A stretch of 64,000 nt of DNA from Escherichia coli (GTDB lineage: Bacteria > Pseudomonadota > Gammaproteobacteria > Enterobacterales > Enterobacteriaceae): assembly GCF_044324875.1 (NCBI RefSeq), contig NZ_CP172185.1. One strand, 5' to 3'. This document shows positions 1,321 to 45,185 of this stretch, one piece after another. The stretch's first letter is position 1. Each line of letters opens with the position of its first letter. A program made the position numbers and the translations under genes. Below the pieces are notes generated by a model that searched no databases, was not told the DNA's origin, and saw only the letters and a program-made list of their open reading frames with translations.

Positions 1321-1520
1321 TTTCATCTCCTTATAATTAGCTTGCTAAGATATTATGCGGCTTTTAGAATAGTGTGCAGCAATTGTATTGCTAAAACAAA
1401 TGTATTGCTGCATTTGGTTACCGTCAGACATATTTTTCAGAAATTGCGCGTAAATTTTTCGCACTTAAAGAATATTTATTAATCTAACGCAATATATTCG
1501 GTCGTAAAGGAATCTACTTT

Positions 1521-1757
1521 GTGAAGTTTATGCTCAATGCAACAGGATTGCCCTTACAAGATCTGGTGTTCGGTGCGTCCGTCTACTTTCCTCCGTTTTT
1601 CAAAGCCTTCGCGTTTGGATTCGTCATCTGGCTTGTCGTACACCGCCTGCTTCGTGGCTGGATCTACGCCGGTGACATCTGGCATCCCTTGTTAATGGAT
1701 TTATCGCTGTTTGCGATTTGCGTTTGCCTTGCCCTGGCAATACTGATTGCGTGGTAA
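1521..1757 (+). CDS. ydhI: small inner-membrane protein (DUF1656-type)
   Basis: 78-aa hydrophobic ORF immediately upstream of ydhJ; synteny. Confidence 0.8.
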
Positions 1758-1759
1758 CT

Positions 1760-2617
1760 ATGTCAATTAAAACAATTAAGTATTTCTCAACAATCATTGT
1801 AGCGGTAGTTGCGGTTCTTGCCGGATGGTGGCTGTGGAATTATTACATGCAATCTCCGTGGACACGCGACGGGAAAATACGCGCAGAACAGGTTTCTATC
1901 ACCCCTCAGGTGTCGGGACGTATTGTTGAGCTGAATATAAAAGACAACCAACTGGTTAACGCGGGGGATCTTCTGCTCACGATCGATAAAACGCCCTTTC
2001 AGATCGCCGAGCTGAACGCACAGGCTCAGCTGGCGAAAGCGCAATCTGACCTCGCAAAAGCCAATAACGAAGCGAATCGTCGTCGTCATCTCTCACAAAA
2101 TTTTATTTCTGCCGAAGAACTCGATACCGCTAACCTCAATGTTAAAGCGATGCAGGCCAGTGTTGATGCCGCACAGGCGACGCTGAAACAGGCACAATGG
2201 CAACTGGCGCAAACGGAAATTCGCGCCCCGGTGAGTGGATGGGTGACTAACCTCACTACCCGCATCGGCGATTACGCTGACACCGGGAAACCGCTGTTTG
2301 CCCTTGTCGACAGCCACTCGTTTTACGTCATTGGTTATTTTGAAGAAACCAAGTTGCGCCATATCCGCGAAGGTGCACCAGCACAAATTACCCTCTATAG
2401 TGATAACAAAACGTTACAGGGTCACGTTTCCAGTATCGGTCGGGCGATTTATGATCAGAGCGTTGAAAGTGACTCAAGCCTTATTCCGGATGTGAAACCT
2501 AACGTCCCCTGGGTTCGACTTGCCCAACGCGTTCCCGTCCGCTTTGCGCTGGATAAAGTCCCAGGCGATGTCACGCTGGTGTCGGGCACCACCTGTAGCA
2601 TTGCCGTAGGTCAATAA
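1760..2617 (+). CDS. ydhJ: HlyD-family membrane fusion protein
   Basis: ATG at 1760 in the frame of ORF 1718..2617; N-terminal TM segment plus coiled-coil; 285 aa. Confidence 0.85.
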
Positions 2618-4629
2618 TGAACGCATCGTCATGGTCCTTGCGCAATTTGCCCTGGTTCAGGGCCACGCTGGCGCAATGGCGTTATGCGTTACGCAATACC
2701 ATTGCCATGTGTCTGGCGCTGACGGTTGCCTATTATTTAAATCTGGATGAACCCTATTGGGCGATGACCTCGGCTGCCGTGGTTAGCTTTCCCACCGTTG
2801 GCGGTGTCATCAGCAAAAGCCTCGGACGCATCGCTGGCAGTTTGCTCGGAGCCATTGCGGCACTGCTTCTTGCCGGACATACGCTCAATGAGCCGTGGTT
2901 TTTTCTTTTGAGCATGGCGGCGTGGCTTGGCTTTTGTACCTGGGCCTGTGCGCACTTCACGAATAATGTCGCGTATGCATTTCAACTGGCGGGCTACACG
3001 GCTGCCATCATCGCCTTTCCGATGGTTAATATTACTGAGGCCAGCCAGCTGTGGGATATCGCTCAGGCGCGCGTTTGCGAGGTGATTGTCGGTATTTTGT
3101 GCGGCGGCATGATGATGATGATCCTGCCGAGCAGTTCCGATGCTACTGCCCTTTTAACCGCATTGAAAAACATGCACGCCCGATTACTGGAACATGCCAG
3201 TTTACTCTGGCAGCCTGAAACAACCGATGCCATTCGTGCAGCACATGAGGGGGTGATTGGACAGATACTGACCATGAATTTGCTCCGTATCCAGGCTTTC
3301 TGGAGCCACTATCGTTTTCGCCAGCAAAACGCACGCCTTAATGCGCTGCTCCACCAGCAATTACGTATGACCAGTGTCATCTCCAGCCTGCGACGTATGT
3401 TGCTCAACTGGCCCTCACCGCCATGTGCCACACGAGAAATTCTCGAACAGCTGCTGACGGCGCTCGCCAGTTCGCAAACAGATGTTTACACCGTCGCACG
3501 TATTATCGCCCCGCTACGCCCGACCAACGTCGCCGACTACCGGCACGTCGCCTTCTGGCAGCGACTACGTTATTTTTGCCGCCTTTATCTGCAAAGTAGT
3601 CAGGAATTACATCGTCTGCAAAGCGGTGTGGATGATCATACCAGACTCCCACGGACATCCGGCCTGGCTCGTCATACCGATAACGCCGAAGCTATGTGGA
3701 GCGGACTGCGTACATTTTGTACGTTGATGATGATTGGCGCATGGAGTATTGCTTCGCAATGGGATGCCGGTGCCAATGCATTAACGCTGGCAGCAATTAG
3801 CTGCGTACTCTACTCCGCCGTCGCAGCACCGTTTAAGTCGTTGTCACTGCTGATGCGCACGCTGGTGTTACTTTCGCTATTCAGCTTTGTGGTCAAATTT
3901 GGCCTGATGGTCCAGATTAGCGATCTGTGGCAATTTTTACTGTTTCTCTTTCCACTGCTGGCGACGATGCAGCTTCTTAAATTGCAGATGCCCAAATTTG
4001 CCGCACTGTGGGGGCAACTGATTGTTTTTATGGGTTCGTTTATCGCTGTCACTAATCCCCCGGTGTATGATTTTGCTGATTTTCTTAACGATAATTTGGC
4101 AAAAATCGTTGGCGTCGCGTTGGCGTGGTTAGCGTTCGCCATTTTGCGTCCAGGGTCGGATGCTCGTAAAAGCCGTCGTCATATTCGCGCGCTGCGCCGG
4201 GATTTTGTCGATCAACTAAGCCGCCATCCAACACTGAGTGAAAGCGAATTTGAATCGCTCACTTATCATCACGTCAGTCAGTTGAGTAACAGCCAGGATG
4301 CGCTGGCTCGCCGTTGGTTATTACGCTGGGGTGTAGTGCTGCTGAACTGTTCTCATGTTGTCTGGCAATTACGCGACTGGGAATCGCGTTCCGATCCGTT
4401 ATCGCGAGTACGGGATAACTGTATTTCACTGTTGCGGGGAGTGATGAGTGAGCGTGGCGTTCAGCAAAAATCACTGGCGACCACACTTGAAGAATTACAG
4501 CGGATTTGTGACAGCCTTGCCCGTCATCATCAACCTGCTGCCCGTGAGCTGGCGGCAATTGTCTGGCGGCTGTACTGCTCGCTTTCGCAACTTGAGCAAG
4601 CACCGCCACAAGGTACGCTGGCCTCTTAA
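2617..4629 (+). CDS. ydhK: FUSC-family inner membrane efflux protein
   Basis: 670-aa polytopic membrane ORF whose start overlaps the ydhJ stop; synteny. Confidence 0.85.
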
Positions 4630-12500: not shown

Positions 12501-13284
12501 ATCTTCTTGCAGTAAAACGAATCTTCCCGACCATGATTAGCGGGCAGGAGCGTCTTGCCTGTATGGATGATGCCGCCAGGCTGCGCGATGCTCTCGGCGT
12601 ACGACTACCAGAGTCACTGCCAGAGATTTATTTGCACCGAGTCAGTTACCCGCTTCGCGACCTCTTTCTGCGCTATCTCCGGGCTCATGCTCTGGTCACG
12701 TCTGAACAACTGGCTCATGAGTTTAGTCTCGGTACTGCCATTGTCGAAGAGCAACTTCAGCAACTGCGCGAACAGGGGCTGGTGATGAATCTGCAACAAG
12801 ACATCTGGGTGAGCGATGAAGTATTTCGTCGTCTGCGTTTGCGCTCGCTGCAAGCCGCCAGAGAAGCGACACGTCCCGTTGCGGCCACGACCTATGCGCG
12901 ATTGCTGCTGGAACGTCAGGGCGTATTACCCGCCACCGATGGTAGCCCGGCACTCTTTGCCTCAACATCGCCAGGCGTTTATGAGGGCGTGGATGGCGTG
13001 ATGCGGGTGATCGAACAGCTTGCTGGCGTTGGTTTACCCGCCTCACTCTGGGAAAGCCAGATCCTGCCTGCCCGCGTACGCGACTATTCGCCAGAAATGC
13101 TCGATGAATTACTGGCAACCGGTGCGGTTATCTGGTCGGGGCAAAAAAAGCTGGGTGAAGATGACGGTCTGGTGGCACTGCATCTACAGGAATATGCCGC
13201 AGAATCGTTCACTCCCGCCGAAGCAGATCAGGCGAATCGTTCGGCGCTGCAGCAAGCGATAATCGCTGTTCTGGCTGACGGAGG
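9584..13284 (+). pseudogene. lhr: lhr (large ATP-dependent helicase) 5' portion: in-frame TAA at 11030-11032, then truncated by prophage insertion
   Basis: ORFs 9584..11032 and 11099..13297 are in the same frame, separated by a single TAA; Walker A GSGKT and DEVH helicase motifs; frame runs into the prophage left end and stops at 13295-13297. Confidence 0.85.
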
Positions 13285-18243: not shown

Positions 18244-19410
18244 TTAAACTCCTTTGACAACGTCAGCGTTGACCTGTGGAACCCCGATTTCAGCGGCCAG
18301 ATTCATGGCGGCTATTACCAGGTTACTGACGGCCAGCGGATACAGCAGGCTGACCATATTTTTACGATGACTTCCCGGATTGCTCAGGCGGGCACGTATG
18401 GCATCCACTGCGCTGGCGTCCATAATGTCCGTCAGTTGTTTACCGGCCCGTTGCAGTTTGAACGTCAGAAATTCTTCAAGGTTATTGTCCAGAGGCAGAA
18501 GTTCGACCACCTCACAGCGCTGAACGACTTCACGGACTTCCATATTGCGTTCAGACAGTTTTGTCGCCAGTTCCGGCTGGCCAATCAGCACGATGGACAG
18601 CAGTTTTTTGAAACCGGACTCCAGCTCAAAAAAGCGTTTGAGGTGTTTCAGTGTCGGAATGGGCAGACTGTGGGCCTCCTCAATCACCAGAACGTGGCTG
18701 AACCCCGCCTGGCTGCTGTCTTTCAGGACGCGATGCAACTGGCGAAAGCGGGCGTCCTGACTGCGTCTGATGCTTTCCAGTGGTGCGATGGTACTGATAA
18801 TGGCTTCGGCAATAGCTGCTGCCTTCAGGGTTTTCCCTTTCACATCGTTGTCTTCCATAGCGATGATGTATGGCTCGATAACAATTACCGGCGCATTCTC
18901 GCGGTTAATACGTTCAGTCAGGTCGCGGCGCAGCGTGGATTTACCCGCACCGGACTCACCGATGACGGCCATAAACCCACCATGACGGGCTGTCTGGTAC
19001 AGCGCCTCACGCACGTAGCGAATGTCCGGGGTGGTGAACACATCATCAGAACCCTGCATGGCTTCATCGGCGAACGGGTCACGGAAAAGACCAAACGCTT
19101 TTTTGGTTGCTGGAAATAACACCTGTTTTTTGAGTAACATATTCTCTTCCTCACTGAGGCTCGTTTTATCTGTGGTACCCGCTGTACGGGGCGTGGCCGC
19201 GCCCTGTACAGCATCAAAACTCTTCGTTGTATCAATCCCCTGACTTTCCAGCCAGGACGCAAGACGCCGGCGCACTTCTCCGGGGCTGGTGCGGGGCCAC
19301 GCGTTATGATTCACAATCTGGGCCAGCGTGGCCTCAGAAACATCGACAGCTCTCGCCGCCACCGCCTGTGGAATACGGGCCTCTTTCAGTTGCTGCTTCA
19401 GTACCAGCAT
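18244..19410 (-). CDS. MuB-like transposition ATPase (AAA+)
   Basis: Walker A GESGAGKST; ATG at 19408-19410 preceded by GAGGAGGG SD; directly downstream of transposase. Confidence 0.75.
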   Translation of the reverse strand: MLVLKQQLKEARIPQAVAARAVDVSEATLAQIVNHNAWPRTSPGEVRRRLASWLESQGIDTTKSFDAVQGAATPRTAGTTDKTSLSEEENMLLKKQVLFPATKKAFGLFRDPFADEAMQGSDDVFTTPDIRYVREALYQTARHGGFMAVIGESGAGKSTLRRDLTERINRENAPVIVIEPYIIAMEDNDVKGKTLKAAAIAEAIISTIAPLESIRRSQDARFRQLHRVLKDSSQAGFSHVLVIEEAHSLPIPTLKHLKRFFELESGFKKLLSIVLIGQPELATKLSERNMEVREVVQRCEVVELLPLDNNLEEFLTFKLQRAGKQLTDIMDASAVDAIRARLSNPGSHRKNMVSLLYPLAVSNLVIAAMNLAAEIGVPQVNADVVKGV

Positions 19411-19420
19411 GTTTCCCTCC

Positions 19421-21190
19421 TCAGTTGCCGTTAACAATGCTGATAACGCTGCTGCGGGCCGGCGTGGTCAGCGTGGCCATGACTTCATCCAGTGCGGCTT
19501 CCGGTACGCCGTCCGGGTACTGTGCTGTTAACTGGCGGTAATGTTCCGGCGTCCAGGTCAGGCCGTCGGCGCTGAACTTATCGCGCAGGGCTTTCGCGGC
19601 CTCCACATGAGTCATGGGACGCTGTTCAGTGCGCGGTCCGCGTACGTCAGAGGCCTGACCACGCTTCGGTATACAGGCCGGAAGTGTGGCGTCATCAATA
19701 TGTTTATACGGGTCAAGCCGCCCGCCGAACGGCAGCGCCTTCGCCTTGCGTGCGGCAGCTGCATCTGCGGCGTTGTCTGTACCGGTGACCAGCGCTTCGG
19801 TTTCTTTTGCCGCCATCTGCGCCGGGGTTTCCGGCAGGGCTTTGTAACTTTCGCCAAATACCGCCGCGCCTTCAGCAAAGCCAAACTCGTTCTTTCTGAC
19901 CTCTTCGACCAGGAAGAACGTCTCGTGGCCGTCCTCACCGGTCAGAACCACCTGTGCCACATCGCTGCGCCACGGGTTACGGGTAATCATCAGTTTTTCA
20001 CCGACCAGTACGCCCGGTACCGTTGATACGTCAAATTCAGTGCCCCGGAACGAGACACGAAGTTTTGGCGTGACTTTGCGGAGTTCTGGTGCCGCCACAG
20101 CCAGTTCACGACATACCTCAACGGAAGGCGCTTTTTTCAGCTGCTCAGCAGTAATCTTCAGCCAGATATCCGTGCGGGTTTTACCGTGGCGGCTGTGAAC
20201 AGCCGTGGCGTTAAAGTGGCTGCGCCATTTCGCGGCCAGCGCGTTGAGTTCTTCCAGACTGTGAACCGGCCGGAACTTCAGACCCGGCTCCAGCTTGCGT
20301 TCGATAATGTCACGCGCCTTTTCCACCTGTCCGGTGGCGCGGGCGTTATGCGGCTTGTGCGCTATCAGGTCGATGCCCAGTGAGCGGCACATGTTTTTCG
20401 TCATACCCGCGGTGTTTGCCGAGCCGGGGTCGAGATAGAGTATTTTTGGCACGCCGTGCAGCACGTCTGCGCCGCCACGCTCCTGCATGGCGTTGATAAG
20501 CACAGAACACAGGTTCTCACCGGATTCCGCACCCGTCACATACTCAACGTAAATCCAGCCGCTGGCATGGTCGGTAATCTCGTAACTCCACACGCGGTCA
20601 CTGGCGATACGGGCAAGGTTAGCGGGCTTGTTTTTGTAGAATTTCGCGCTGTCCATCACCTGCAGCCCTTTATGTCCATTGCTCAGGTAGTAAAGCGTGC
20701 AGAGTGAGGCGTCAATCTGCCAGACATGATTGGGGTGCAGACTGGCCACTTCGGTATGCGGTGCAGGGGCATCCAGTTGTTCCGGGTGCAGGCCATAGTT
20801 ACGCAGGGCACGACTGATGGCATCTTCGGACAACGGGAAAAACTCACCGGTGGTTTCATCTGTTCTGCCTGCGGAGATAAAGCCGTTAGCCCGCAGGGTT
20901 TCCACTGCATCCGCGATGGAATAGAGACGCTTACCGTTCTTGCGGGTGGCCTCACGTAGTGTGGCAGATATCAGCGCGGCTTCGTCGCGGGTCAGGGTGC
21001 TGCGTCCGGCATCGGCGCGTTTTTTGCGTTTATCAGTCACAGAGACCTCCTTCAGCCTGCGCAGCAGAGTGGCGCGGGACATGCCAAGTTCAGCACAGGC
21101 AGCGTCGTATATTGCACCGCGTTTACCATGCCCCGCATTACGTGCCGCGCGGGCTGTTTCAACAAGTTTTTCAGTCAGTGCCGGGGTCAT
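19421..21190 (-). CDS. DDE transposase (Mu A-like function, rve-type catalytic core with N-terminal HTH)
   Basis: 589-aa ORF; HTH RATLLRRLKEV; HVWQIDASLC core; position upstream of MuB-like gene. Confidence 0.8.
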   Translation of the reverse strand: MTPALTEKLVETARAARNAGHGKRGAIYDAACAELGMSRATLLRRLKEVSVTDKRKKRADAGRSTLTRDEAALISATLREATRKNGKRLYSIADAVETLRANGFISAGRTDETTGEFFPLSEDAISRALRNYGLHPEQLDAPAPHTEVASLHPNHVWQIDASLCTLYYLSNGHKGLQVMDSAKFYKNKPANLARIASDRVWSYEITDHASGWIYVEYVTGAESGENLCSVLINAMQERGGADVLHGVPKILYLDPGSANTAGMTKNMCRSLGIDLIAHKPHNARATGQVEKARDIIERKLEPGLKFRPVHSLEELNALAAKWRSHFNATAVHSRHGKTRTDIWLKITAEQLKKAPSVEVCRELAVAAPELRKVTPKLRVSFRGTEFDVSTVPGVLVGEKLMITRNPWRSDVAQVVLTGEDGHETFFLVEEVRKNEFGFAEGAAVFGESYKALPETPAQMAAKETEALVTGTDNAADAAAARKAKALPFGGRLDPYKHIDDATLPACIPKRGQASDVRGPRTEQRPMTHVEAAKALRDKFSADGLTWTPEHYRQLTAQYPDGVPEAALDEVMATLTTPARSSVISIVNGN

Positions 21191-21205
21191 AGCTTGTCTT
21201 CCCTG

Positions 21206-21523
21206 TTATCCGATTCTGGCGGCAATTTTTCTGGCACGGTCGCGCAGGGTTTCGCCATCGCAGGTTTTCACCACGTTATTTACCGGTTGCGGCGCAACTG
21301 CCGGGCGCAATGCTGACTGATGCTGCAGACGTCTTATCTGCTGCATCAGCATCACTTCCATCGTCAGTACAAACGGATGCGCCTCCTGTGCGGGTACGCA
21401 GATTTCACCGGAAGGTGTCACCACGCGGAAACCCTGCACCATCTCCGGCAGCAGATTACACAGTGCGTGCCCCAGTGCCTCCGGGCTGTCCATCAGGATA
21501 TTTTGTGTGTTATCCGTGTTCAT
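21206..21523 (-). CDS. hypothetical early protein (105 aa)
   Basis: ORF between ner-like and transposase genes. Confidence 0.4.
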   Translation of the reverse strand: MNTDNTQNILMDSPEALGHALCNLLPEMVQGFRVVTPSGEICVPAQEAHPFVLTMEVMLMQQIRRLQHQSALRPAVAPQPVNNVVKTCDGETLRDRARKIAARIG

Positions 21524-22440
21524 TACTGCATGCCCTCCGGTCGGTTGATTTCAGGCTCCGGTTCGGTCAGCCATGCGGGGACATCGTTACCCGATGGTGC
21601 GGCATCAAGGTCGAACGTCTCACGCAATGCATGAACACTGCGTTCAATCTGGCAGACCAGACCGGCCATGAAATCTCTGGGGGTATCAATCATGTTTTTA
21701 CTGCAGTATTCACACAGGGTTTCAAAGGCACCGGAGAGCCGGACGGCGATGGCAGATTCCGCCTCAACCGCTAATGCGGTCACTTCCGCCCGCAGCTTCT
21801 TCACCTCTTCATCAGGCTCAGGCGGTTGAATACGGGATTTCTTCTCCAGTTTTGTGGCCAGTTCGTTGATTTTTTCGTCCTTTCCGGCAAGCACCTGTTG
21901 CTGAGCTGCGTTAGTTTCGCGCGCTTCACGCAGGGCCTGGCGAAGTTCACGTACTGACATGCGATCAACATCATCAAGCGTCAGGCCGGCAACTGTGCCG
22001 CCGTCGGCCAGTTCGGCAAGGTCTTCATCGTCTTCAGCAACAAGTTCAAATAATTTTGCCTTACCCAAAAGCGACAACGTTGTCGCTTTTGGCTCTAGTT
22101 TTGGTGAAAGGTATTTCAAAGATGCTTTCATCATTCGTTGTGCTGCGCGCACGTGCAAACCAAGTTGTTCTTCTACAATTCCAACAAAGTCCCCGTGTGG
22201 CTCATTTTCTTTTAAGATGATCAGCCGTTTACCCGCTTCCAGCATAGATTCAGCACTCTGCGCCATATAAAAACGTGCTTCGTGAACGATGCGATCACGT
22301 TCATAAGGCAGTCCATCACCAAACTGCTGCATGATCTCCATGCGATGCTGTGTCATGGCATTCAGGCTGACGTTGAGATCATCCGACAGCGGTACCTCGG
22401 CGTTCAGTTCAGTGTTAACCGGTGATTTGGTGCGTCCCAT
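21523..22440 (-). CDS. hypothetical early protein (305 aa, acidic coiled-coil region)
   Basis: ORF between ner-like and transposase genes; no confident family assignment. Confidence 0.45.
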   Translation of the reverse strand: MGRTKSPVNTELNAEVPLSDDLNVSLNAMTQHRMEIMQQFGDGLPYERDRIVHEARFYMAQSAESMLEAGKRLIILKENEPHGDFVGIVEEQLGLHVRAAQRMMKASLKYLSPKLEPKATTLSLLGKAKLFELVAEDDEDLAELADGGTVAGLTLDDVDRMSVRELRQALREARETNAAQQQVLAGKDEKINELATKLEKKSRIQPPEPDEEVKKLRAEVTALAVEAESAIAVRLSGAFETLCEYCSKNMIDTPRDFMAGLVCQIERSVHALRETFDLDAAPSGNDVPAWLTEPEPEINRPEGMQ

Positions 22441-22450
22441 TGATTACTCC

Positions 22451-22759
22451 TTACAAACGACTACCTGAAATGACACGTTGGTTGATTTCGTTAATGCGAT
22501 CCTGTGCACGTGCCATCTCGTTACTGTGGGCCATGGCGATCTGCAGCAACTGGATGCCCGGTGCGAAACGCCCGTTTTCCAGTTTCAGGGCCAGTCCTTC
22601 TTCAATGAGGGTGTTGAGTGCCCGGTTGATGTTTGCCGGTGACTCGTGCAGTGCTGCCGCCAGTTCACCATTGGAAATACCGTTCAGGGCATGACCGCGC
22701 AGCGCTTTGAGTACCCGGAGGATGCGACTGCCGGAGCTTGAAACATTCGTCTTACTCAT
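22451..22759 (-). CDS. winged-helix DNA-binding protein (about 102 aa)
   Basis: HTH-like segment ILRVLKALRGHALNGISNGELAAAL; start at MSKT has the better SD spacing. Confidence 0.45.
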   Translation of the reverse strand: MSKTNVSSSGSRILRVLKALRGHALNGISNGELAAALHESPANINRALNTLIEEGLALKLENGRFAPGIQLLQIAMAHSNEMARAQDRINEINQRVISGSRL

Positions 22760-22811
22760 CTGCATACCTCTTTTGCGATATGTGATAACCTTTTACAAAG
22801 AATCAAAATAT

Positions 22812-23000
22812 TCAGGCTGCCTGAGCTGTTGATTTCAGCCCCAGTTTCACGGCGATTTCATGGGATTTACCGTAACGTGCTTTGCTCTGCCCATTGAGAA
22901 CGCGGTATACCTCATTGCGGTTGTAGCCGTTTTCTTCTGCCCAGCGGGTGAAAGTGATCCCGCGCTGGCGGAAGAGAGCTTTGACTTGTTCTGCAGTCAT
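22812..23000 (-). CDS. ner: Ner-like small DNA-binding protein (Cro-equivalent)
   Basis: 62-aa ORF with AAGGAGA SD, divergent from the repressor; Ner-like HTH pattern. Confidence 0.55.
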   Translation of the reverse strand: MTAEQVKALFRQRGITFTRWAEENGYNRNEVYRVLNGQSKARYGKSHEIAVKLGLKSTAQAA

Positions 23001-23100
23001 CGTTGTCTCCTTTGTTGATGCAATGATGTTTGCCTTATGTGTGATAGATTATGGTGCAGATTATCTCACCAGTCAACTTAAAGAGTGCAGAAAAACTCAC
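23001..23100. promoter_or_regulatory. divergent early control region between ner and repressor (candidate operators)
   Basis: 100-bp AT-rich spacer containing the direct repeat AGATTAT twice (GATAGATTATGGTGCAGATTATCTC). Confidence 0.35.
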
Positions 23101-23439
23101 ATGATCGGGTTACGTATTAAAGAAGAAAGAGAGCGTCTATCTCTTACACAGCAAGGGTTGGCTGATGCTATCGGTGTGGCAAAGAGAACTTTTATTGATT
23201 GGGAAAAAGATCGCACTTCTCCTACTGCAGTGCAGTTATCTGCACTATCAGAAATCGGTGTAGATGTTTTGTATGTAGTTACTGGGGTGCGGAGTCAGCC
23301 TGTTGTTGCACCTTATATGTCACAAGAAAAGAAAGAGTTAATGGATGCATTCGACGAGATGAGCCCCGAACAACGGAGGGCAATTCTTGAGGTCGGCAAA
23401 GTCTTCATTCAACCCAAACCAAGCAAACTCGCAGGCTGA
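23101..23439 (+). CDS. XRE-family HTH repressor (c-like)
   Basis: Internal start MIGLRIKEERERLSLTQQGLADAIGVAKRTFIDWEKDRTSP, a classic XRE HTH; divergent from ner. Confidence 0.6.
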   Translation: MIGLRIKEERERLSLTQQGLADAIGVAKRTFIDWEKDRTSPTAVQLSALSEIGVDVLYVVTGVRSQPVVAPYMSQEKKELMDAFDEMSPEQRRAILEVGKVFIQPKPSKLAG

Positions 23440-23525
23440 TTCTGACCTGGACAGAAAGGACAGGTGGTTGATCTGGATGCTTTCAGAAAACGCCGTCAGT
23501 AGCATGGCAGAAATCGGCGGGCTTA

Positions 23526-23548
23526 CCGGAAAGCACTGTACTTTCCGG
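23526..23548. terminator. bidirectional terminator between convergent repressor and dam genes
   Basis: Stem CCGGAAA / TTTCCGG with 9-nt loop followed by T-rich tract. Confidence 0.5.
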
Positions 23549-23557
23549 TTATGGCTT

Positions 23558-24322
23558 TTAGAAATTGCAGATCACCAGCTCACGGCGTGGAGTTGATTTG
23601 CCTGCCAGACTGTAGTTGATGTTCACTGTCTGTATGTTCAGTCCAGTGAACACCTCGCGCATCTGCGGGATGTCGTTCACCGAAATTATCATCTTTCCTC
23701 TGATGCACCGGGCCAGCTCTGCCAGCCGCGAGTAGTTCCCTTCAGGAAAATCCACACCATAGCCTTCTGTACCCAGATACGGCGGGTCACAGTAGAACAG
23801 CGTGTGCGGACGGTCATAGCGCTCAATGCACTGTTGCCAGTCCATGTGTTCTATCACCGTTCTGGAAAGCCGCAGGTGTGCCGCTGACAGTTCTTCCTCG
23901 ATACGCAGCAGGTTGAAGCGTGGCGGGGATGTGGTGGAGGTGCCGAAGCTGTGCTCTGCCACCTTGCCGCCAAACGCCTGCTTCTGGAGGTAGTAGAACC
24001 GTGCTGCACGCTGGATATCCGTCAGTGTTTCTGTCGGGGTGATCTGCAGCCATTTGTAGATCTGCCGGCTGACCAGCGCCCATTTGAACTGGCGGACAAA
24101 TTCTTCCAGATGATGTTTTACCACCCGATACAGATTTACCAGTTCACCATTGATATCGTTAATGACTTCGAGCTTACCAGGTGTCTTAAGAAAATAGAGC
24201 GCTGCTGCGCCGCAGAACGGCTCCACGTAACATTCATGCGCCGGAAACAGCGGCAGGATGTGTTTTGCCAGGCGACGTTTGCCACCAATCCATGGAACGA
24301 TGGGTAATGTCTGCATTTTCAT
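23558..24322 (-). CDS. Dam-type N6-adenine DNA methyltransferase (D12 class)
   Basis: 254-aa ORF with DPPY catalytic motif and N-terminal FCGAAALYF SAM-binding motif. Confidence 0.8.
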   Translation of the reverse strand: MKMQTLPIVPWIGGKRRLAKHILPLFPAHECYVEPFCGAAALYFLKTPGKLEVINDINGELVNLYRVVKHHLEEFVRQFKWALVSRQIYKWLQITPTETLTDIQRAARFYYLQKQAFGGKVAEHSFGTSTTSPPRFNLLRIEEELSAAHLRLSRTVIEHMDWQQCIERYDRPHTLFYCDPPYLGTEGYGVDFPEGNYSRLAELARCIRGKMIISVNDIPQMREVFTGLNIQTVNINYSLAGKSTPRRELVICNF

Positions 24323-26875: not shown

Positions 26876-27167
26876 CCTGCTAAAAAATCTGCCGTGGCGC
26901 AGTCTGCTGCTGGCAGTGCTCATAAATGCTTTTCTGATTGGACTTTATTACCTGGGCTACAAAAGTGCAAAATGGCATCTGAATCGATCGCAGTTTGGCA
27001 TTCGAATCGATCATGATTTGGCATCCATCTCCGATCACAGTTTGGCATCACAATCGATCACGATTTGGCATGCTTCCGATCATTGATTGGCATCCTGCCA
27101 GTCACTCCGGGAATTAACTCTTTTCACCACAGTCTCCATTGCCGTGTTTAAACCAGTGGAGACGTCA

Positions 27168-28733
27168 ATGTCCAGAAAGAGAAAATCCAGGAGCACTATG
27201 GAAACCTGTTTTAAGATCCTTCAGCTCAAGTTCGACAAGAAGCTGACTAACCGTTGTATCGGACTGACGTTACACATCAGCGCCTCAACCGTTTTTGAGG
27301 TTCTTGCCCGCTTCAAAGCCTCTTCTCTGTCATGGCCATTACCTGCTGATATATCCCATGACACGCTGGAGAAACTCATTTTTCCGCCCAAAGACACCTT
27401 TGCATCAGAGCTTGTAATGCCTGACATGTTGTACTTCGATACGGAAATGAGAAAACCAGGTGTGACGCGGCAACTGTTGTGGATGGAATACAAGGCACAG
27501 GCGGGTAACAAAGCGATGGGATACTCGCACTTCTGCCGTTGCTACCGGGAGTGGAAAAAAACGCGACGTCTCTCCATGCGCCAGGAGCATCGTGCCGGCG
27601 AAAAGCTTTTTATCGACTTCTGTGGTCCTACGGTTCCTGTTATTAATCCGGACACCGGTGAGATACGCCGCGTGGCAATCTTCGTGGCCGTAATGGGGGC
27701 GTCCAACTATACCTACGTTGAAGCGTGCGAAGGTCAGGACATGATGTCATGGTTAAATGCCCACAGCCGTTGCCTGACCTTCCTGGGCGGCGTACCGAAG
27801 CTGCTCATCCCCGATAACCTCAGAAGCGCAGTGAAAAAGGCCGATCGATATGAGCCTGTCATCAACGACAGTTATCAGGCACTGGCTGAGCACTATGGCA
27901 CGGTTATCATCCCGGCCCGACCACGCAAACCTAAAGATAAACCAAAAGCAGAAAACGGCGTCCTCATCGTTGAACGATGGCTTCTTGCCCGCATCCGTAA
28001 TGAAACCTTCCACACGCTCAGGGCGCTGAATGCGCGCCTTAGGGAGTTACTGACAGACATGAATAACCGGCCAATGAAGGGGTACGGCAATCAAACCCGT
28101 GCAGAACGCTTCCGCATACTGGATGCGCCAGCACTCTCTCCGCTGCCTCTGGCACCTTATGAATACACGGAATACAAAGCTGTGAAGGTTGGCCCTGACT
28201 ACCACGTTGAATATGCCCGTCACTGGTACTCCGTTCCACACGAACTGGTCGGTCAGCGTCTGTCACTGAAGGCGGGGCAGTCGGTGGTACAGCTCTGGCA
28301 CAAGGGGCAGTGTGTGGCGCAACATCCGCGCAGCACACATGAATATAAACACACAACCAATCCGCTTCACATGCCAGAGCGCCACCGGCAGCACGGGACA
28401 TGGACACCGGAACGCCTGATCGAGCAGGGAAAACGTACGGGCCCGTCCACAGGCCGGGTGGTTGAATCCATGCTGAAGGCAAAACCCCATCCGGAACTGG
28501 CTTATCGTGCAGTTCTGGGGCTGCTGGCACTTCAGAAAAAATACGGCCCGGAACGGCTGGAAAAGGCCTGTTACGTTGCCCTGCACTATAACGCCCCTGA
28601 CAGACGCTTTATCGACAATCTGCTGCGTCACCATCGGGAGAACCTGGAGCTTCCATTATCCCGCCAGGGCGAACAACATCCGGCATATGCTTCAGAGCAT
28701 GAAAACCTGCGTGGTCCGGGCTACTACCACTGA
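27168..28733 (+). CDS. istA: IS21-family transposase IstA
   Basis: N-terminal HTH plus DDE core (FIDFCGP ... IPDNLRS ... VERW); start uncertain (27087 TTG to 27198 ATG). Confidence 0.8.
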   Translation: MSRKRKSRSTMETCFKILQLKFDKKLTNRCIGLTLHISASTVFEVLARFKASSLSWPLPADISHDTLEKLIFPPKDTFASELVMPDMLYFDTEMRKPGVTRQLLWMEYKAQAGNKAMGYSHFCRCYREWKKTRRLSMRQEHRAGEKLFIDFCGPTVPVINPDTGEIRRVAIFVAVMGASNYTYVEACEGQDMMSWLNAHSRCLTFLGGVPKLLIPDNLRSAVKKADRYEPVINDSYQALAEHYGTVIIPARPRKPKDKPKAENGVLIVERWLLARIRNETFHTLRALNARLRELLTDMNNRPMKGYGNQTRAERFRILDAPALSPLPLAPYEYTEYKAVKVGPDYHVEYARHWYSVPHELVGQRLSLKAGQSVVQLWHKGQCVAQHPRSTHEYKHTTNPLHMPERHRQHGTWTPERLIEQGKRTGPSTGRVVESMLKAKPHPELAYRAVLGLLALQKKYGPERLEKACYVALHYNAPDRRFIDNLLRHHRENLELPLSRQGEQHPAYASEHENLRGPGYYH

Positions 28734-28749
28734 CAGAAGGAACAACAGT

Positions 28750-29505
28750 ATGAGTGATAACCTGTTAAACAAACTGACCCAACTGAAACTCCCGGCGATG
28801 GCCGGGAGCCTGATACGGCAGCGGGAAACGCCTCAGACCTACGACGAACTGTCGTTCGAGGAAAGGCTGACGCTGCTGGTTGATGACGAGCTTCTGAGCA
28901 GGGAAAACAGCCGTGTGGCACGGTTGAGAAAAAATGCCGGCCTGAAATACCAGGCAACACCGGAAGGGCTGCGCTATCCGGCCTCAAGAGGTCTGCGGGC
29001 TGAACAGATGAGAGAACTGCTGAACGGCCACTACATAACCCACAGGAAAAACCTGCTGATAACCGGTCCGACAGGATGTGGCAAGAGCTGGATAGCCAAT
29101 GCGCTGGGCGAACAGGCATGTCGACAGAAACACAGCGTCCGGTACTGTAGAACCGGGCGATTACTGGAACAACTGGCTCAGGGACGTGTTGATGGCAGCT
29201 GGCTGAAATATCTGAAACAGTTGCAAAAAATACAGGTTCTAATCCTGGACGATCTGGGGCTGGAACAGTTAAGTAACGCCCAGTGTAATGACCTTCTGGA
29301 GCTCATAGAGGATCGTTACGGACAAAGCAGCACGATAGTGGTAAGCCAGTTCCCGGTAGATAAATGGCATGGTCTGATGGAGAACCCAACAACAGCAGAT
29401 GCCATCCTGGACAGACTGGTACATAACTCACACCGAGTGGTCCTTCAGGGAGAGTCACTGAGGAAAAATCCCCCGGTAGTGGAAAGCAGCGAAAAAACGC
29501 GTTAA
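28750..29505 (+). CDS. istB: IS21-family helper ATPase IstB
   Basis: 251-aa ORF with Walker A GPTGCGKSWIA; ATG at 28750 a few bp after istA stop. Confidence 0.85.
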   Translation: MSDNLLNKLTQLKLPAMAGSLIRQRETPQTYDELSFEERLTLLVDDELLSRENSRVARLRKNAGLKYQATPEGLRYPASRGLRAEQMRELLNGHYITHRKNLLITGPTGCGKSWIANALGEQACRQKHSVRYCRTGRLLEQLAQGRVDGSWLKYLKQLQKIQVLILDDLGLEQLSNAQCNDLLELIEDRYGQSSTIVVSQFPVDKWHGLMENPTTADAILDRLVHNSHRVVLQGESLRKNPPVVESSEKTR

Positions 29506-29856
29506 AAAGCGGTAGAAAAAGTTAAGTTCCCGGTTGATCGAATGGATGCGAATCGCTGATCGGACTTCGATGCCAATCCGTGATCGAATAGAGCGGAATA
29601 CGCAAAAGCGGGCATGAAAACGCCACGCGCGACGGCGATAAGGCGATCAGTGAGTTGCAGTCAGCATTCGACACATACAAAACGGAGCAGGCAATGCTTG
29701 AGAACGCTGCATTGCGAGCATGGGCAAAACGGTATCAGGAGCAGGTGGCCGCTGGGCAGCAGGCTGAGGCCGGTTATCTTGAGCAGATTGCTCAACTGGA
29801 GAGTCAGAACAAACAACTACAGGGGCAAATTAACGATGTCACACAGCGCTGGATTG

Positions 29857-42233: not shown

Positions 42234-45185
42234 ATGTCGGGACAGTTTTCAGTCGGCGTTGTTATCGGCGGGATGATTGGCAGCACATTCCGTTCTGCAA
42301 TGAGCGGTACCCGCCGTGCGCTTGATTCCCTGAGCGATACCTCACGCCGCCTGCAGGAACGTCAGAACGCTTTAACCCGTGCAACAGAACGTTATGGTCA
42401 ACTGGGCTCTTCCCGGATGCAGCATCTCAACAGCGAGCTGCTGCGGGTAAGCCGCACCATGGAGCAAATTGAGCGCCAGCAGCGCCGTCTGTCAGCGGCA
42501 TCAGCCACCAGTGATGCGCTGAAAGCTAACCGCATGGCGCTGTATGGTCAGGGGATTGAAGCGTATGGCATGGCACAGACTGTTTATCATACGGTTTCCC
42601 CTGCCGTTCAGCAGTCCATGTCTTTTCAGGACAAAATGATTGATATGTCGATCACCGCAAAATATGACAATAAAACGCGGGATGCACTTGCCGGACAGAT
42701 AAAAGGCTGGGCGCAAAAATACAATCAGTATCAGGATGAACTGCAGGAGGCGGTGGGTTCGCTCATCAGCGACAATATTGATAACTTGTCAGATATCGGT
42801 TTTCTGATGCCGGATATTGCCCGCGCGGCAACGGCAACACGCACGTCATCTCAGGACTGGGCAAAAGTGGCCGCAGTCTGGCAAAACTCCCTGAAAGGTG
42901 CGGCCAGAGATTTTAGTGCCGTCCAGAATATTATGGCTTATGCCGGTGACCAGGGGTCATTTGAAATCCCGGATCAGGTCAAGTGGATGCAGTCCCTGGC
43001 CCCAATGATGGCGGGTATTGCCAGTGGAAAAGAGGCTGTTGCTGAAATCGGGGCCAGTCTCCAGATAGCAAAAATCGGTGCGGGCTCCACCGACGAAGCA
43101 GCCAATAATTTTAAAAACTTTCTTACCAAAATTTTTGCCCGCGATACTCAGAAACAGTTTGCTGATCTGGGTATTGATTTGCAGGGTTCTGTTGCGAGTT
43201 ATAAGGCTGCGGGGATCTCTCCGATTGAAGGGATGTTGAGTGTTATAGAACGTTACCTCAATGCCAAAAGCCCCGAAGCGCTGGCCGGCTTCAAATCCGC
43301 CATGAAAATAAAGAATGATACGGCAAGAGATGAGGCACTTCAGGCTCTGGCGAAAAACTTTGGTCTGGGCGATATGTTCGCGGATATGCAGGTCATGGCA
43401 TTTATCCGCCCGATGCTGGCCAACATGGACAGATATCGCGAGATCCGTGCCGGTGCTCTCAGGGCTGCGGATAACGATTTGCTTGCCAGTGCTTACGATC
43501 AGCGGCTGAAATCTCCCCTTGAAGCCACTAAAGCGCTTATGGTCAGCAGTCGCGATCTGGCTATTACGCTGGGCGATCAGCTCGCCCCCTCTTTTATTTC
43601 TCTGACTCAGGAGCTGATCCCACTCATTCAGGGGGCAAAACACTGGGTGGCGACTCACCCGCAATTTGTCAGTGGGGCTTTTAAGCTCATCAGTGCGCTC
43701 CTTGCGATTAAGATAGCGACTGTTGGTCTCAAACTGGGGCTGAATCTCCTTATTTCCCCCTTTGTGAACGTCTGGAAAACTGCTGTTTTACTCCGGACCA
43801 ACTGGCATCGACTGACTACCGCACTAGGAGAAGGTGGCAAATTACGCTGGCTTGTCACTGGATTTAGCCGACTGACCAGCGGAGGACTGAAACTCAGCAA
43901 AGTTCTGGCGGGCAGCCTCGTTCGCGGTTTTATGAGCGCTGCACGTGCCGTTCTCTGGATTGGGCGAGCGCTGATGATGAATCCCATCGGTCTCGTTATC
44001 ACCGCTGTCGCGGCAGCAGCTTACCTTATCTACCGCAACTGGGGGACAGTCAGTGGCTGGTTTAAACAGCGCTGGGCTGACATTCAGGAAGCCTTTAACG
44101 GCGGTATCGCGGGAACTGGTAAGCTGCTGATTAACTGGTCGCCGGCAGGGCTGCTCTATAAAGCCTTTGCGGCTGCGCTGAAATATTTCGGCGTTGCTCT
44201 GCCGGCAAAGTTCACCGACTTCGGTGGCCATCTTGTCGACGGTCTGATTAACGGTATCAAAAACAAATGGGGGTCGCTCAAATCCAGTGTAACCGGAATG
44301 GGTGACAGCATCAGTAGCTGGTTTAAACAGTGCTGGTCTGACATTCAGGAGGCCTTTAACGGCGGTATCGCGGGAACTGGTAAGCTGCTGATTAACTGGT
44401 CGCCGGCAGGTCTGCTCTATAAAGCCTTTGCAGCTGCGCTGAAATATCTTGGTGTTGATCTGCCGGCAAAGTTCACCGACTTCGGTGGCCATCTTGTCGA
44501 CGGTCTGATTAACGGTATCAAAAACAAATGGGAGTCGCTCAAATCCAGTGTAACCGGAATGGGTGACAGCATCAGTGGCTGGTTCAGTGAAAAGCTGGGT
44601 ATTCATTCGCCGAGCCGCGTGTTTATGGGCTTTGGTGACAATATCGCGCAGGGGGCCGCCATTGGCCTGCAGCGGAGCACTCCGATTGCAGCTCTGGCCG
44701 GGCAGCGAATGGCCAGTGAACTGCTCCCCAGAATGCCCGTGAGCATTCAGGGGCCAGAAATACGGGATAACACTTCAGGTGTTCGCTTCAGTATGCCGTT
44801 GCCCGATATCAACGGGTTTATGTCGTCTGCTAAAAATGCGATCGGATCCGTAATCAATAGTTTGTCTTCCATGCCCGCTATTCCGATCTCCACCCGGGCA
44901 TCGACTTTACCAGGTCAACGTCTGGCAAATGAGATGACACCGGATGTTCCCCGTATCCCCTCGCCTGAAATCCTGGCTGCCGGATATTCAGGCCGTGGTG
45001 CAGCTGCAACCGGCGGTGGAACGTCTGGTGGTATCCAGGTCAGCTTTAATCCTCAGTTTTTCCTCAATGGCAGGGAAACCACAGCGCCTGCAGGACTGAC
45101 TGGTGCCCTGAATATGAGTCTGCATGAGCTGGAAAAAATGCTGGAGCGTCTGCTGGCTCAGAAACAACGTAAGGAGTACCGCTGA
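42234..45185 (+). CDS. tail tape measure protein
   Basis: 983-aa ORF with coiled-coil N-terminus, TM segments and internal tandem duplication. Confidence 0.8.
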   Translation: MSGQFSVGVVIGGMIGSTFRSAMSGTRRALDSLSDTSRRLQERQNALTRATERYGQLGSSRMQHLNSELLRVSRTMEQIERQQRRLSAASATSDALKANRMALYGQGIEAYGMAQTVYHTVSPAVQQSMSFQDKMIDMSITAKYDNKTRDALAGQIKGWAQKYNQYQDELQEAVGSLISDNIDNLSDIGFLMPDIARAATATRTSSQDWAKVAAVWQNSLKGAARDFSAVQNIMAYAGDQGSFEIPDQVKWMQSLAPMMAGIASGKEAVAEIGASLQIAKIGAGSTDEAANNFKNFLTKIFARDTQKQFADLGIDLQGSVASYKAAGISPIEGMLSVIERYLNAKSPEALAGFKSAMKIKNDTARDEALQALAKNFGLGDMFADMQVMAFIRPMLANMDRYREIRAGALRAADNDLLASAYDQRLKSPLEATKALMVSSRDLAITLGDQLAPSFISLTQELIPLIQGAKHWVATHPQFVSGAFKLISALLAIKIATVGLKLGLNLLISPFVNVWKTAVLLRTNWHRLTTALGEGGKLRWLVTGFSRLTSGGLKLSKVLAGSLVRGFMSAARAVLWIGRALMMNPIGLVITAVAAAAYLIYRNWGTVSGWFKQRWADIQEAFNGGIAGTGKLLINWSPAGLLYKAFAAALKYFGVALPAKFTDFGGHLVDGLINGIKNKWGSLKSSVTGMGDSISSWFKQCWSDIQEAFNGGIAGTGKLLINWSPAGLLYKAFAAALKYLGVDLPAKFTDFGGHLVDGLINGIKNKWESLKSSVTGMGDSISGWFSEKLGIHSPSRVFMGFGDNIAQGAAIGLQRSTPIAALAGQRMASELLPRMPVSIQGPEIRDNTSGVRFSMPLPDINGFMSSAKNAIGSVINSLSSMPAIPISTRASTLPGQRLANEMTPDVPRIPSPEILAAGYSGRGAAATGGGTSGGIQVSFNPQFFLNGRETTAPAGLTGALNMSLHELEKMLERLLAQKQRKEYR
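44058..44590 (+). repeat. 240-bp tandem duplication inside tape measure gene (two full units plus start of a third)
   Basis: Protein repeat WFKQ(R/C)W(A/S)DIQEAFNGGIAGTGKLLINWSPAGLLYKAFAAALKY... occurs twice 80 aa apart. Confidence 0.7.

Follow-up and report, generated by a model that had tools for sequence, protein, structure and literature searches.

What are the genes that separate the first early gene from the transposase gene in a transposable prophage of Escherichia coli, and what might they do? The question is raised by a 64,000-nt stretch of the contig NZ_CP172185.1 (NCBI RefSeq assembly GCF_044324875.1), hereafter called the window, in which the first-pass annotation described three closely packed minus-strand open reading frames (ORFs) between a ner-like helix-turn-helix (HTH) gene and the transposase gene tnpA. 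Their coordinates and lengths were given correctly: a 102-aa winged-helix (wHTH) gene at 22451-22759, a 305-aa gene at 21523-22440 and a 105-aa ORF at 21206-21523. It was also right that no such genes occur in phage Mu, where ner (1099-1326) directly precedes the transposase gene A (1328-3319). We deal here mainly with the 305-aa protein, which is named 'DUF3102 domain-containing' in RefSeq (WP_021537369), and with a palindrome located inside its own gene, which the protein is predicted to bind.

A palindrome inside the DUF3102 gene

The palindrome, first flagged by a terminator scan, occupies positions 22065-22092 (both strands). These lie within DUF3102 codons 117-126, some 0.9 kb before the start of tnpA. 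It is perfect over 28 bp and reads CCAAAAGCGACAAC|GTTGTCGCTTTTGG (as a whole, CCAAAAGCGACAACGTTGTCGCTTTTGG). The window holds a single copy, and none of 100 shuffles yielded a match; neither full sites nor half-sites were found elsewhere in it in excess of chance.

Perfect palindromes with other cores were observed at the same position of the gene in related phages and prophages. The site of E. coli strain JJ1886 has another core (CCAAAACGCTCAGC|GCTGAGCGTTTTGG; whole site, CCAAAACGCTCAGCGCTGAGCGTTTTGG), and further versions are found in KP12 (...GCGCAAGC|GCTTGCGC...), BcepMu (TTCAAAAGCGGCGTT|AACGCCGCTTTTGAA) and B3 (CAAAACGGACAAC|GTTGTCCGTTTTG), as well as in phiE255, Mae-JY22, phiSHP3 and one metagenomic contig. 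A 26-bp palindrome with no more than 2 mismatches occupies this position in 76 of 96 distinct homologous genes (44 perfect, 21 with one and 11 with two mismatches), and the consensus of the sites is CAAA[A/T]-N7-C|G-N7-[A/T]TTTG. When the 47 distinct sites were compared, changes on both sides were seen in 9 of the 13 symmetric pairs (136 cells), and the covariation score was 0.565, compared with 0.148 for shuffled sites and about 0.05 with slid partners. The symmetric changes alter the encoded residues (PKATTLSLLG, PKRSALSVLG, SNASTSTHLI and others), which indicates that selection acts on the symmetry of the DNA. The palindrome is located in the least conserved loop of the protein. It offers a clear example of a predicted protein-binding site that is kept in coding sequence by compensatory, amino-acid-altering changes.

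Across 1.49 Mb of loci, DUF3102 ORFs contain 78 perfect palindromes of at least 22 bp, against 14 outside them, of which 11 belong to the same CAAA...TTTG family. For several genes that carry no intragenic palindrome, a site of this family was found at another place: 11-21 bp past the repressor gene in the loci L026 and L045, between the wHTH and DUF3102 genes in L029, and about 2 kb from the gene in L087. We found no paper on a palindrome in such early operons, an earlier mention in the original B3 and BcepMu genome papers being possible, and no functional paper on 'DUF3102'. The conserved protein/site pair seems to be undescribed in the literature, the original B3 and BcepMu genome papers being outside the scope of this statement.

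Which protein may read the site

With the codons that overlap the site excluded, the highest normalised mutual information with the site bases was obtained for alignment columns 53-59 of the DUF3102 protein, which correspond to the start of the second helix of a predicted HTH (residues 82-110; codons at 22111-22197 on the minus strand), placed by the secondary structure of the model and by the residue-base coupling. Control columns equally close to the site on its downstream side gave much lower values. R98, Q101 and R102 are the second, fifth and sixth residues of the predicted recognition helix, places from which HTH proteins usually contact bases. The segment that holds these residues reads HVRAAQR in the window and APQVARR in the JJ1886 allele. 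Wherever column 55 (R98) is arginine (54 of 54), half-site position 8 is G. At column 58 (Q101), glutamine goes with [A/T]GC (36/38), arginine with ACG (8/9), and valine, alanine, histidine or serine with T(G/A)T. At column 59 (R102), all 44 arginines are paired with C at position 10, and A accompanies 17 of the 18 other residues. We stratified the coupling by the background identity of the protein pairs, and it held at every level. The three residues are identical in 43-100% of pairs with the same site core across the identity strata, but in 9-18% of those with different cores (12% of 345 pairs at a background identity of at least 80%). The relocated sites in L087 and L045 obey the residue-base rules fully, and that in L029 partly.

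For the wHTH protein and for the N-terminus of the transposase (TnpA), every column gave a normalised mutual information with the site of 0.68 or less. Pairs that are at least 97% identical and yet differ in site core numbered 36 for the wHTH protein and 50 for the TnpA N-terminus; between the window and JJ1886, both proteins are 99% identical, while the site differs at 6 of the 8 core positions. Judged by these comparisons, the wHTH protein and TnpA are not the readers of the palindrome. The co-varying bases centre about 5.5 bp on either side of the dyad, as would be expected of two helices lying one DNA turn apart. We consider from this coupling that the DUF3102 protein quite probably binds the palindrome as a dimer, and the evidence argues strongly that it is a sequence-specific DNA-binding protein. 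The most conserved uncharacterised gene beside the transposase thus gains a predicted DNA target, a simple residue-base code and a set of natural variants.

The 305-aa protein had been described as an acidic coiled-coil protein, which is in agreement with its isoelectric point of 4.83 and with the paired long helices in the AlphaFold model. The model, built from a 60-sequence alignment, is all-helical and confident (predicted local distance difference test score 92.5). It comprises two long N-terminal helices, a compact core (residues 82-160) and antiparallel 40-residue helices forming a hairpin at the C-terminus; in our feature list, the helical, putatively DNA-binding core is bounded at residues 44-172. 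The match to the Pfam family DUF3102 (PF11300) is a marginal pass, at 24.8 bits against a gathering threshold of 24.4, over residues 65-172. The modelled long-helix hairpin probably makes the protein a dimer.

In the model, the core appears to resemble the HTH DNA-binding domain of ParB and KorB, as a likeness of fold and not as membership of the family. The fold-match scores are modest and the unrelated protein Raf1 scores equally, and because of this we treat the likeness as a fold resemblance only. ParB/Spo0J-parS and KorB-OB are systems of ParB-family HTH proteins bound to palindromic sites, and the first parS of B. subtilis lies inside spo0J. The arrangement described here is like the latter in pairing an HTH protein with its cognate palindrome, binding being predicted in the present case. 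It differs from both in having no N-terminal CTPase domain, no nearby ParA and no sequence similarity, in the length of the site (26-28 bp, against 13-16 bp for ParB and KorB sites), and in its setting in an integrated transposable prophage, which has nothing to partition. The N-terminus consists of two long helices and gave no Pfam match to the ParB/Srx-like CTP-binding domain at E<=0.1, and no gene for a ParA-type ATPase partner was seen in the prophage gene map. Sequence searches of the PDB with two family profiles (A1 and A2) gave nothing significant, and hhalign detected no similarity of the A1 profile to MuA or of the A2 profile to SopB of the F plasmid. In size, acidity and overall architecture the DUF3102 protein is also like KfrA of IncP plasmids, an acidic protein of about 300 aa with an N-terminal DNA-binding domain and a long coiled coil. 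It has no Pfam KfrA_N match at E<=0.1 and a different genetic context, and KfrA binds its own promoter and not its own coding sequence, unlike what is predicted here.

The DUF3102 gene is mosaic. Between the same pairs of E. coli prophages, synonymous divergence (dS) is 0.5-0.6 in DUF3102 against 0.06-0.07 in tnpA. Two alleles of the HTH/site segment (residues 85-170) recombine independently of the flanks, and the allele of the C-terminal tail travels with the 105-aa ORF. From these mosaic alleles, the protein/site pair appears to behave as an exchangeable specificity cassette.

Some homologs depart from the usual architecture. Those of 434-545 aa have N-terminal extensions without a Pfam domain, which gave no 'Rosetta stone' fusion clue. 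In P0201 (532 aa) and P0248 (537 aa) these extensions are about 240 aa long and contain repeated Cys-rich motifs, C..C...H/C, again with no Pfam match; they may be zinc-binding modules. In phage JBD25, the gene for gp15 (L015, 4419-5396) takes the same slot before the transposase; its product matches the C-terminal part of the 305-aa protein and not the hidden Markov model of the DUF3102 core. Codons 86-94 of this gene hold a 25-bp palindrome, AAAAGTGGTCAC-G-GTGACCAGTTTT. This points to the theme of a site within the gene extending to a different DNA-binding head.

What the protein/site pair may do

We propose that each recognition helix of a DUF3102 dimer (R98, Q101 and R102 in the window) would read one half of the 26-28 bp palindrome, and that protein and site would diversify together as a swappable specificity module. 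The bound site could then be a cis-acting architectural element for transposition, enhancer-like or tethering, which is the least certain step; it would mark the phage's own DNA beside tnpA and help the short rve transposase to act on its own genome. We put forward tentatively, as a possible function, such a self-contained pair that would act in cis on transposition or on the expression of the early operon. A role in transposition is favoured by the gene invariably adjoining tnpA, by the transposase lacking the N-terminal, enhancer-binding domain of MuA, by the site being unique and internal, and by its tolerance of relocation outside the early transcription unit. It would bear on how non-Mu transposable phages control and assemble transposition without the MuA enhancer-binding domain.

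Mu has a transpositional enhancer (the internal activation sequence, IAS), which is bound by domain I-alpha of MuA. Like the IAS, the palindrome is an internal cis site that occurs once and lies close to the transposase gene, and like domain I-alpha, the DUF3102 protein is a dedicated, putative DNA-binding module encoded immediately 5' of the catalytic part of the transposase, which here has no I-alpha equivalent. Unlike in Mu, the predicted reader is a separate protein of unrelated fold, and the site is a single palindrome and not a cluster of operators. Any stimulation of transpososome assembly by the pair would be by analogy with Mu. It is rather unlikely, in our estimate, that the pair is a split-off, swappable counterpart of the Mu enhancer and MuA domain I-alpha. 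If it is, a transpososome would be allowed to assemble on the phage's own DNA only, licensed by a dimer at the internal site, and rapid co-diversification would keep co-resident related prophages from activating each other or mis-pairing their ends.

A purely transcriptional role, doubtful when taken by itself, ranks nearly as likely: the same protein would bind the same site, and the bound dimer would be a roadblock or autorepressor limiting read-through into the transposase, the ATPase and the downstream early genes, as a second brake besides the ner-like protein. In about 80% of the homologs the site indeed lies within the early transcription unit upstream of tnpA, and the closest analogues of the protein in architecture, KorB and KfrA, repress transcription. 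In the B3-like phage Fc02, RNA-seq showed early transcripts 'dwindling distally' (PMC9936078). There is, however, no promoter-like sequence near the site. Moreover, several phages have their sole site, or additional ones, outside the early operon: in L026 and L045 it follows closely on the 3' end of the divergent repressor gene, and in L017 and L085 it is located still further beyond that gene. A roadblock to early transcription is impossible at such places.

An alternative in which the DUF3102 protein does not bind is that the palindrome works at the RNA level, as an attenuator, a bidirectional terminator or an RNase III site in the early mRNA. The site looks the part in some respects, with A4 and T4 flanks around a GC-rich core that were flagged as terminator-like in the scan, an RNA that folds into a 12-bp hairpin (-21.9 kcal/mol, z -3.2), and relocated copies 11-21 bp after the repressor stop codon, a typical position for a terminator. 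But the U-run is just 4 nt and is itself paired with the A-run, the mismatches in imperfect copies show no bias toward G-U, and the recognition-helix residues predict the core even at physically unlinked sites. Furthermore, the pair 12-15 beside the centre is complementary in 47 of 47 sites (AT 22, GC 20, TA 4, CG 1). This pair covaries although it would be in the 4-nt loop of the hairpin, which favours a double-stranded DNA site read by a dimer. An intrinsic (rho-independent) terminator has a GC-rich stem, an unconstrained loop and a free U-run behind the stem; at 22065-22092 a stem forms, but the U-run is paired and the loop bases co-vary symmetrically, which does not fit such a terminator. 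We regard an RNA-level function as improbable.

It is quite improbable, too, that host takeover or anti-defence is the main job of the DUF3102 protein and that the palindrome is read by something else. An acidic, elongated, fast-diversifying early protein with mosaic alleles, and with the excess of dS over tnpA given above, would suit such a function. Against this, no match in PADLOC or the other libraries points to host takeover or anti-defence (none of the three proteins had a meaningful PADLOC match), it is in the HTH/site segment that the protein diversifies, in keeping with the residue-base code, and the position of the gene beside tnpA is invariant.

The phage and its early operon

The prophage is a transposable prophage of the BcepMu/B3 type, not of the Mu type. 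Over 5.6 kb, the sequence is 100% identical to that of a prophage in E. coli Ec1117, and matches to this region were found in 643 of the 5426 complete E. coli genomes; the nearest phage is Escherichia phage PhiKM, classified as Bcepmuvirus, with 95% identity. The ner-like gene (22812-23000, minus strand) encodes a 62-aa HTH protein of TIGR04111, the BcepMu gp16 family (98 bits, cut-off 34), and fails the Ner family HTH_35 (17.8 bits, cut-off 25). The transposase showed no similarity to MuA by BLASTP and lacks all four MuA Pfam domains, HTH_Tnp_Mu_1, HTH_Tnp_Mu_2, DDE_2 and Mu-transpos_C. On these results, a Mu-type ner-A arrangement (Muvirus) was rejected, and Mu, which the first-pass annotation had taken as its frame of comparison, proved to be the wrong one.

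The early operon is that of BcepMu and B3 in each respect compared by tblastn and in the annotated regions. The gene of the gp16 family comes first and is divergent from an XRE/cI-type repressor gene (23101-23439, plus strand; HTH_3 E=1.6e-7), which is a coding sequence in the RefSeq annotation of the identical prophage. Homologs of BcepMu gp12 and gp10 precede the transposase gene. TnpA itself (19421-21190, minus strand) is a 589-aa rve-type DDE transposase (rve E=1e-8; phrog_310 E=8e-147) whose alignment to phrog_310 begins at profile position 130, and it is followed by the gene of an ExeA-like AAA_22 ATPase, a B-type transposition protein (18244-19410, minus strand; AAA_22 E=4e-20; phrog_296). 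This leftward operon ends in Mor and GemA, and the rightward genes encode a holin, an SLT protein and Mu-like head and contractile-tail proteins. An early operon that runs opposite to the lysis and structural genes is the BcepMu/B3 layout (PMC5977238).

The translation signals that had been called plausible for all three ORFs could be read from the sequence at normal spacing. The Shine-Dalgarno sequence of the 102-aa gene is AAGAGG, 7 nt before the ATG at 22759, the length being counted from this second ATG (104 aa from the first); that of the 305-aa gene is AAGGAG, 7 nt before the ATG at 22440. The start of the 105-aa ORF overlaps the DUF3102 stop (TAATG, at 21523), with GGAGGG 8 nt upstream of the overlap. 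The same three coding sequences are annotated by RefSeq in the Ec1117 prophage, and the proteins match PHROG families end to end: phrog_1368 for the 102-aa protein (E 9e-45), phrog_1748 for the 305-aa protein (4e-141) and phrog_5446 for the 105-aa protein (7e-67). NCBIfam gave nothing for the 305-aa or the 105-aa protein. Against related prophages, the ratio of nonsynonymous to synonymous substitution (dN/dS) is 0.03-0.06 for the wHTH gene, 0.12-0.23 for DUF3102 and 0.30 for the 105-aa ORF, the last value being based on just 16 differences. The three ORFs are real, expressed-looking early-operon genes under purifying selection.

The 102-aa protein is of the IclR/MarR type, and the winged helix attributed to it is borne out by a match to HTH_IclR (E=3e-6; 27.3 bits, cut-off 22). 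It has no C-terminal IclR effector-binding domain and is not a full IclR regulator; it would be a stand-alone winged helix, a separate small DNA-binding regulator. Its homologs are BcepMu gp12 and B3 ORF14. Homologs of the DUF3102 protein include BcepMu gp10, phiE255 gp41 and B3 ORF13 as well as proteins of phiSHP3 and of Ralstonia, Klebsiella and Microcystis-associated phages; 1529 representative relatives were counted in a library clustered at 50% identity, and the gene is present in 633 of the 5426 complete E. coli genomes (about 12%), among them that of the sequence type 131 strain JJ1886. Some E. coli genomes carry two or three prophages of this kind.

The homology and synteny comparisons suggested earlier gave a clear result. 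The homolog of the 102-aa gene adjoins the DUF3102 gene in every record holding both, and in annotated maps the order wHTH, DUF3102, transposase, ATPase recurs in BcepMu, B3, phiE255, phiSHP3, JBD25 and distant metagenomic contigs. The same order and orientation are seen in BcepMu gp12-gp11-gp10-gp09, phiE255 gp42-41-40 and B3 ORF14-13-12 (Bcepmuvirus and Beetrevirus), where the operon again comes after a gp16-family HTH gene and diverges from the gene of an XRE repressor, and where, in each of the three phages, the palindrome is at the same place in the gene, with core and recognition residues differing between phages. KS10 has a gp10 homolog directly before its transposase gene (PMC2628397). 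Among 120 IMG/VR loci, which were retrieved by scanning for a conserved peptide motif as a degenerate DNA motif, the transposase gene comes immediately after DUF3102 in 84 of 84 loci, and the wHTH gene immediately before it in 97 of 100. Across this phage group, the wHTH and DUF3102 genes are a conserved pair situated directly before the transposase and ATPase genes.

The 105-aa ORF shows a different pattern. Its relatives form 11 protein clusters found exclusively in E. coli and Salmonella, with a single weak match in phages outside PhiKM (Ralstonia YO107_2, E=5e-3), and it occurs in 409 E. coli genomes against the 633 that carry DUF3102. It is missing from KP12 and from the strains SF-173 and JNEC-KY180 (loci L006, L012 and L013), in which the DUF3102 stop is 3 nt from the tnpA start. 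It is an optional insertion between the DUF3102 and transposase genes, a narrow accessory gene that comes and goes among prophages otherwise alike. BcepMu has an unrelated 70-aa gene, gp11, on the other side of DUF3102, to which the 105-aa ORF showed no similarity.

The view of the first-pass annotation, that all three are regulators or accessory factors added in this lineage to a Mu-like ner-A arrangement, is therefore highly improbable: Mu does lack all three genes and the variably present 105-aa ORF is restricted to E. coli and Salmonella, but for the wHTH and DUF3102 genes it is refuted by the synteny data, the two being conserved in Burkholderia, Pseudomonas, Stenotrophomonas, Klebsiella and metagenomic phages, with the many DUF3102 clusters mentioned above and in a phage not of the Mu protein type. 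Lineage specificity thus holds for the 105-aa ORF only. The three genes do lie in the early operon, and the suggested roles as early regulators or transposition accessory factors are plausible, the one for the 305-aa protein being sharpened to that of a predicted palindrome binder. The trio itself is already known, having been annotated since the BcepMu and B3 genomes, and with the added 105-aa ORF of the E. coli lineage it is the ordinary arrangement of a common prophage family. In the RNA-seq study of Fc02, early-operon ORFs besides A, B, gemA and mor have no function assigned (PMC9936078), and the records of BcepMu, phiE255 and B3 likewise give these genes no function.

A consensus scan of 21000-23700 gave a sole promoter-like site, a sigma-70-like predicted early promoter, TTGACT-17-CATAAT (23048-23076, minus strand), upstream of the ner-like gene. 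Two direct copies of a motif family (AT)GGTGCAGA lie over this promoter at 23051-23061 and 23084-23094, and one inverted copy lies inside the repressor gene at 23236-23248. Perfect 22-bp palindromes of the same family, ATGGTGCAGAATTCTGCACCAT, were found in related phages (L088, 543-564; L106, 9737-9758). The motifs probably serve as operators at which the repressor, the wHTH protein or the gp16-family protein binds. At 22812-22824 a short palindrome, TCAGGCAGCCTGA, overlaps the ner-like stop codon, and a T-rich stretch comes after it. This palindrome may weakly attenuate expression between the first early gene and the remaining genes of the operon.

Some further features of the prophage were noted. 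The identity to Ec1117 begins at 13282, the Mor-side end of the prophage, and on its left the prophage is flanked in the window by sequence other than the inaA/nrdAB region found in Ec1117; the differing flanks indicate the same prophage at different chromosomal sites, as expected of a transposable phage. An IS21-family element of 2637 bp (26966-29602; istA 27087-28733, istB about 28750-29505) is inserted just after the SLT endolysin gene and is not in the otherwise identical Ec1117 prophage; its flanks overlap by 6 bp, resembling a target duplication. The repressor and lysis genes are separated by a gene for a D12-class (Dam-like) DNA adenine methyltransferase (23558-24322, minus strand), which is transcribed toward the immunity region. 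In the tail tape-measure gene, positions 44032-44584 hold two overlapping copies of about 290 bp with 94% identity, offset by about 260 bp, which constitute a tandem duplication.

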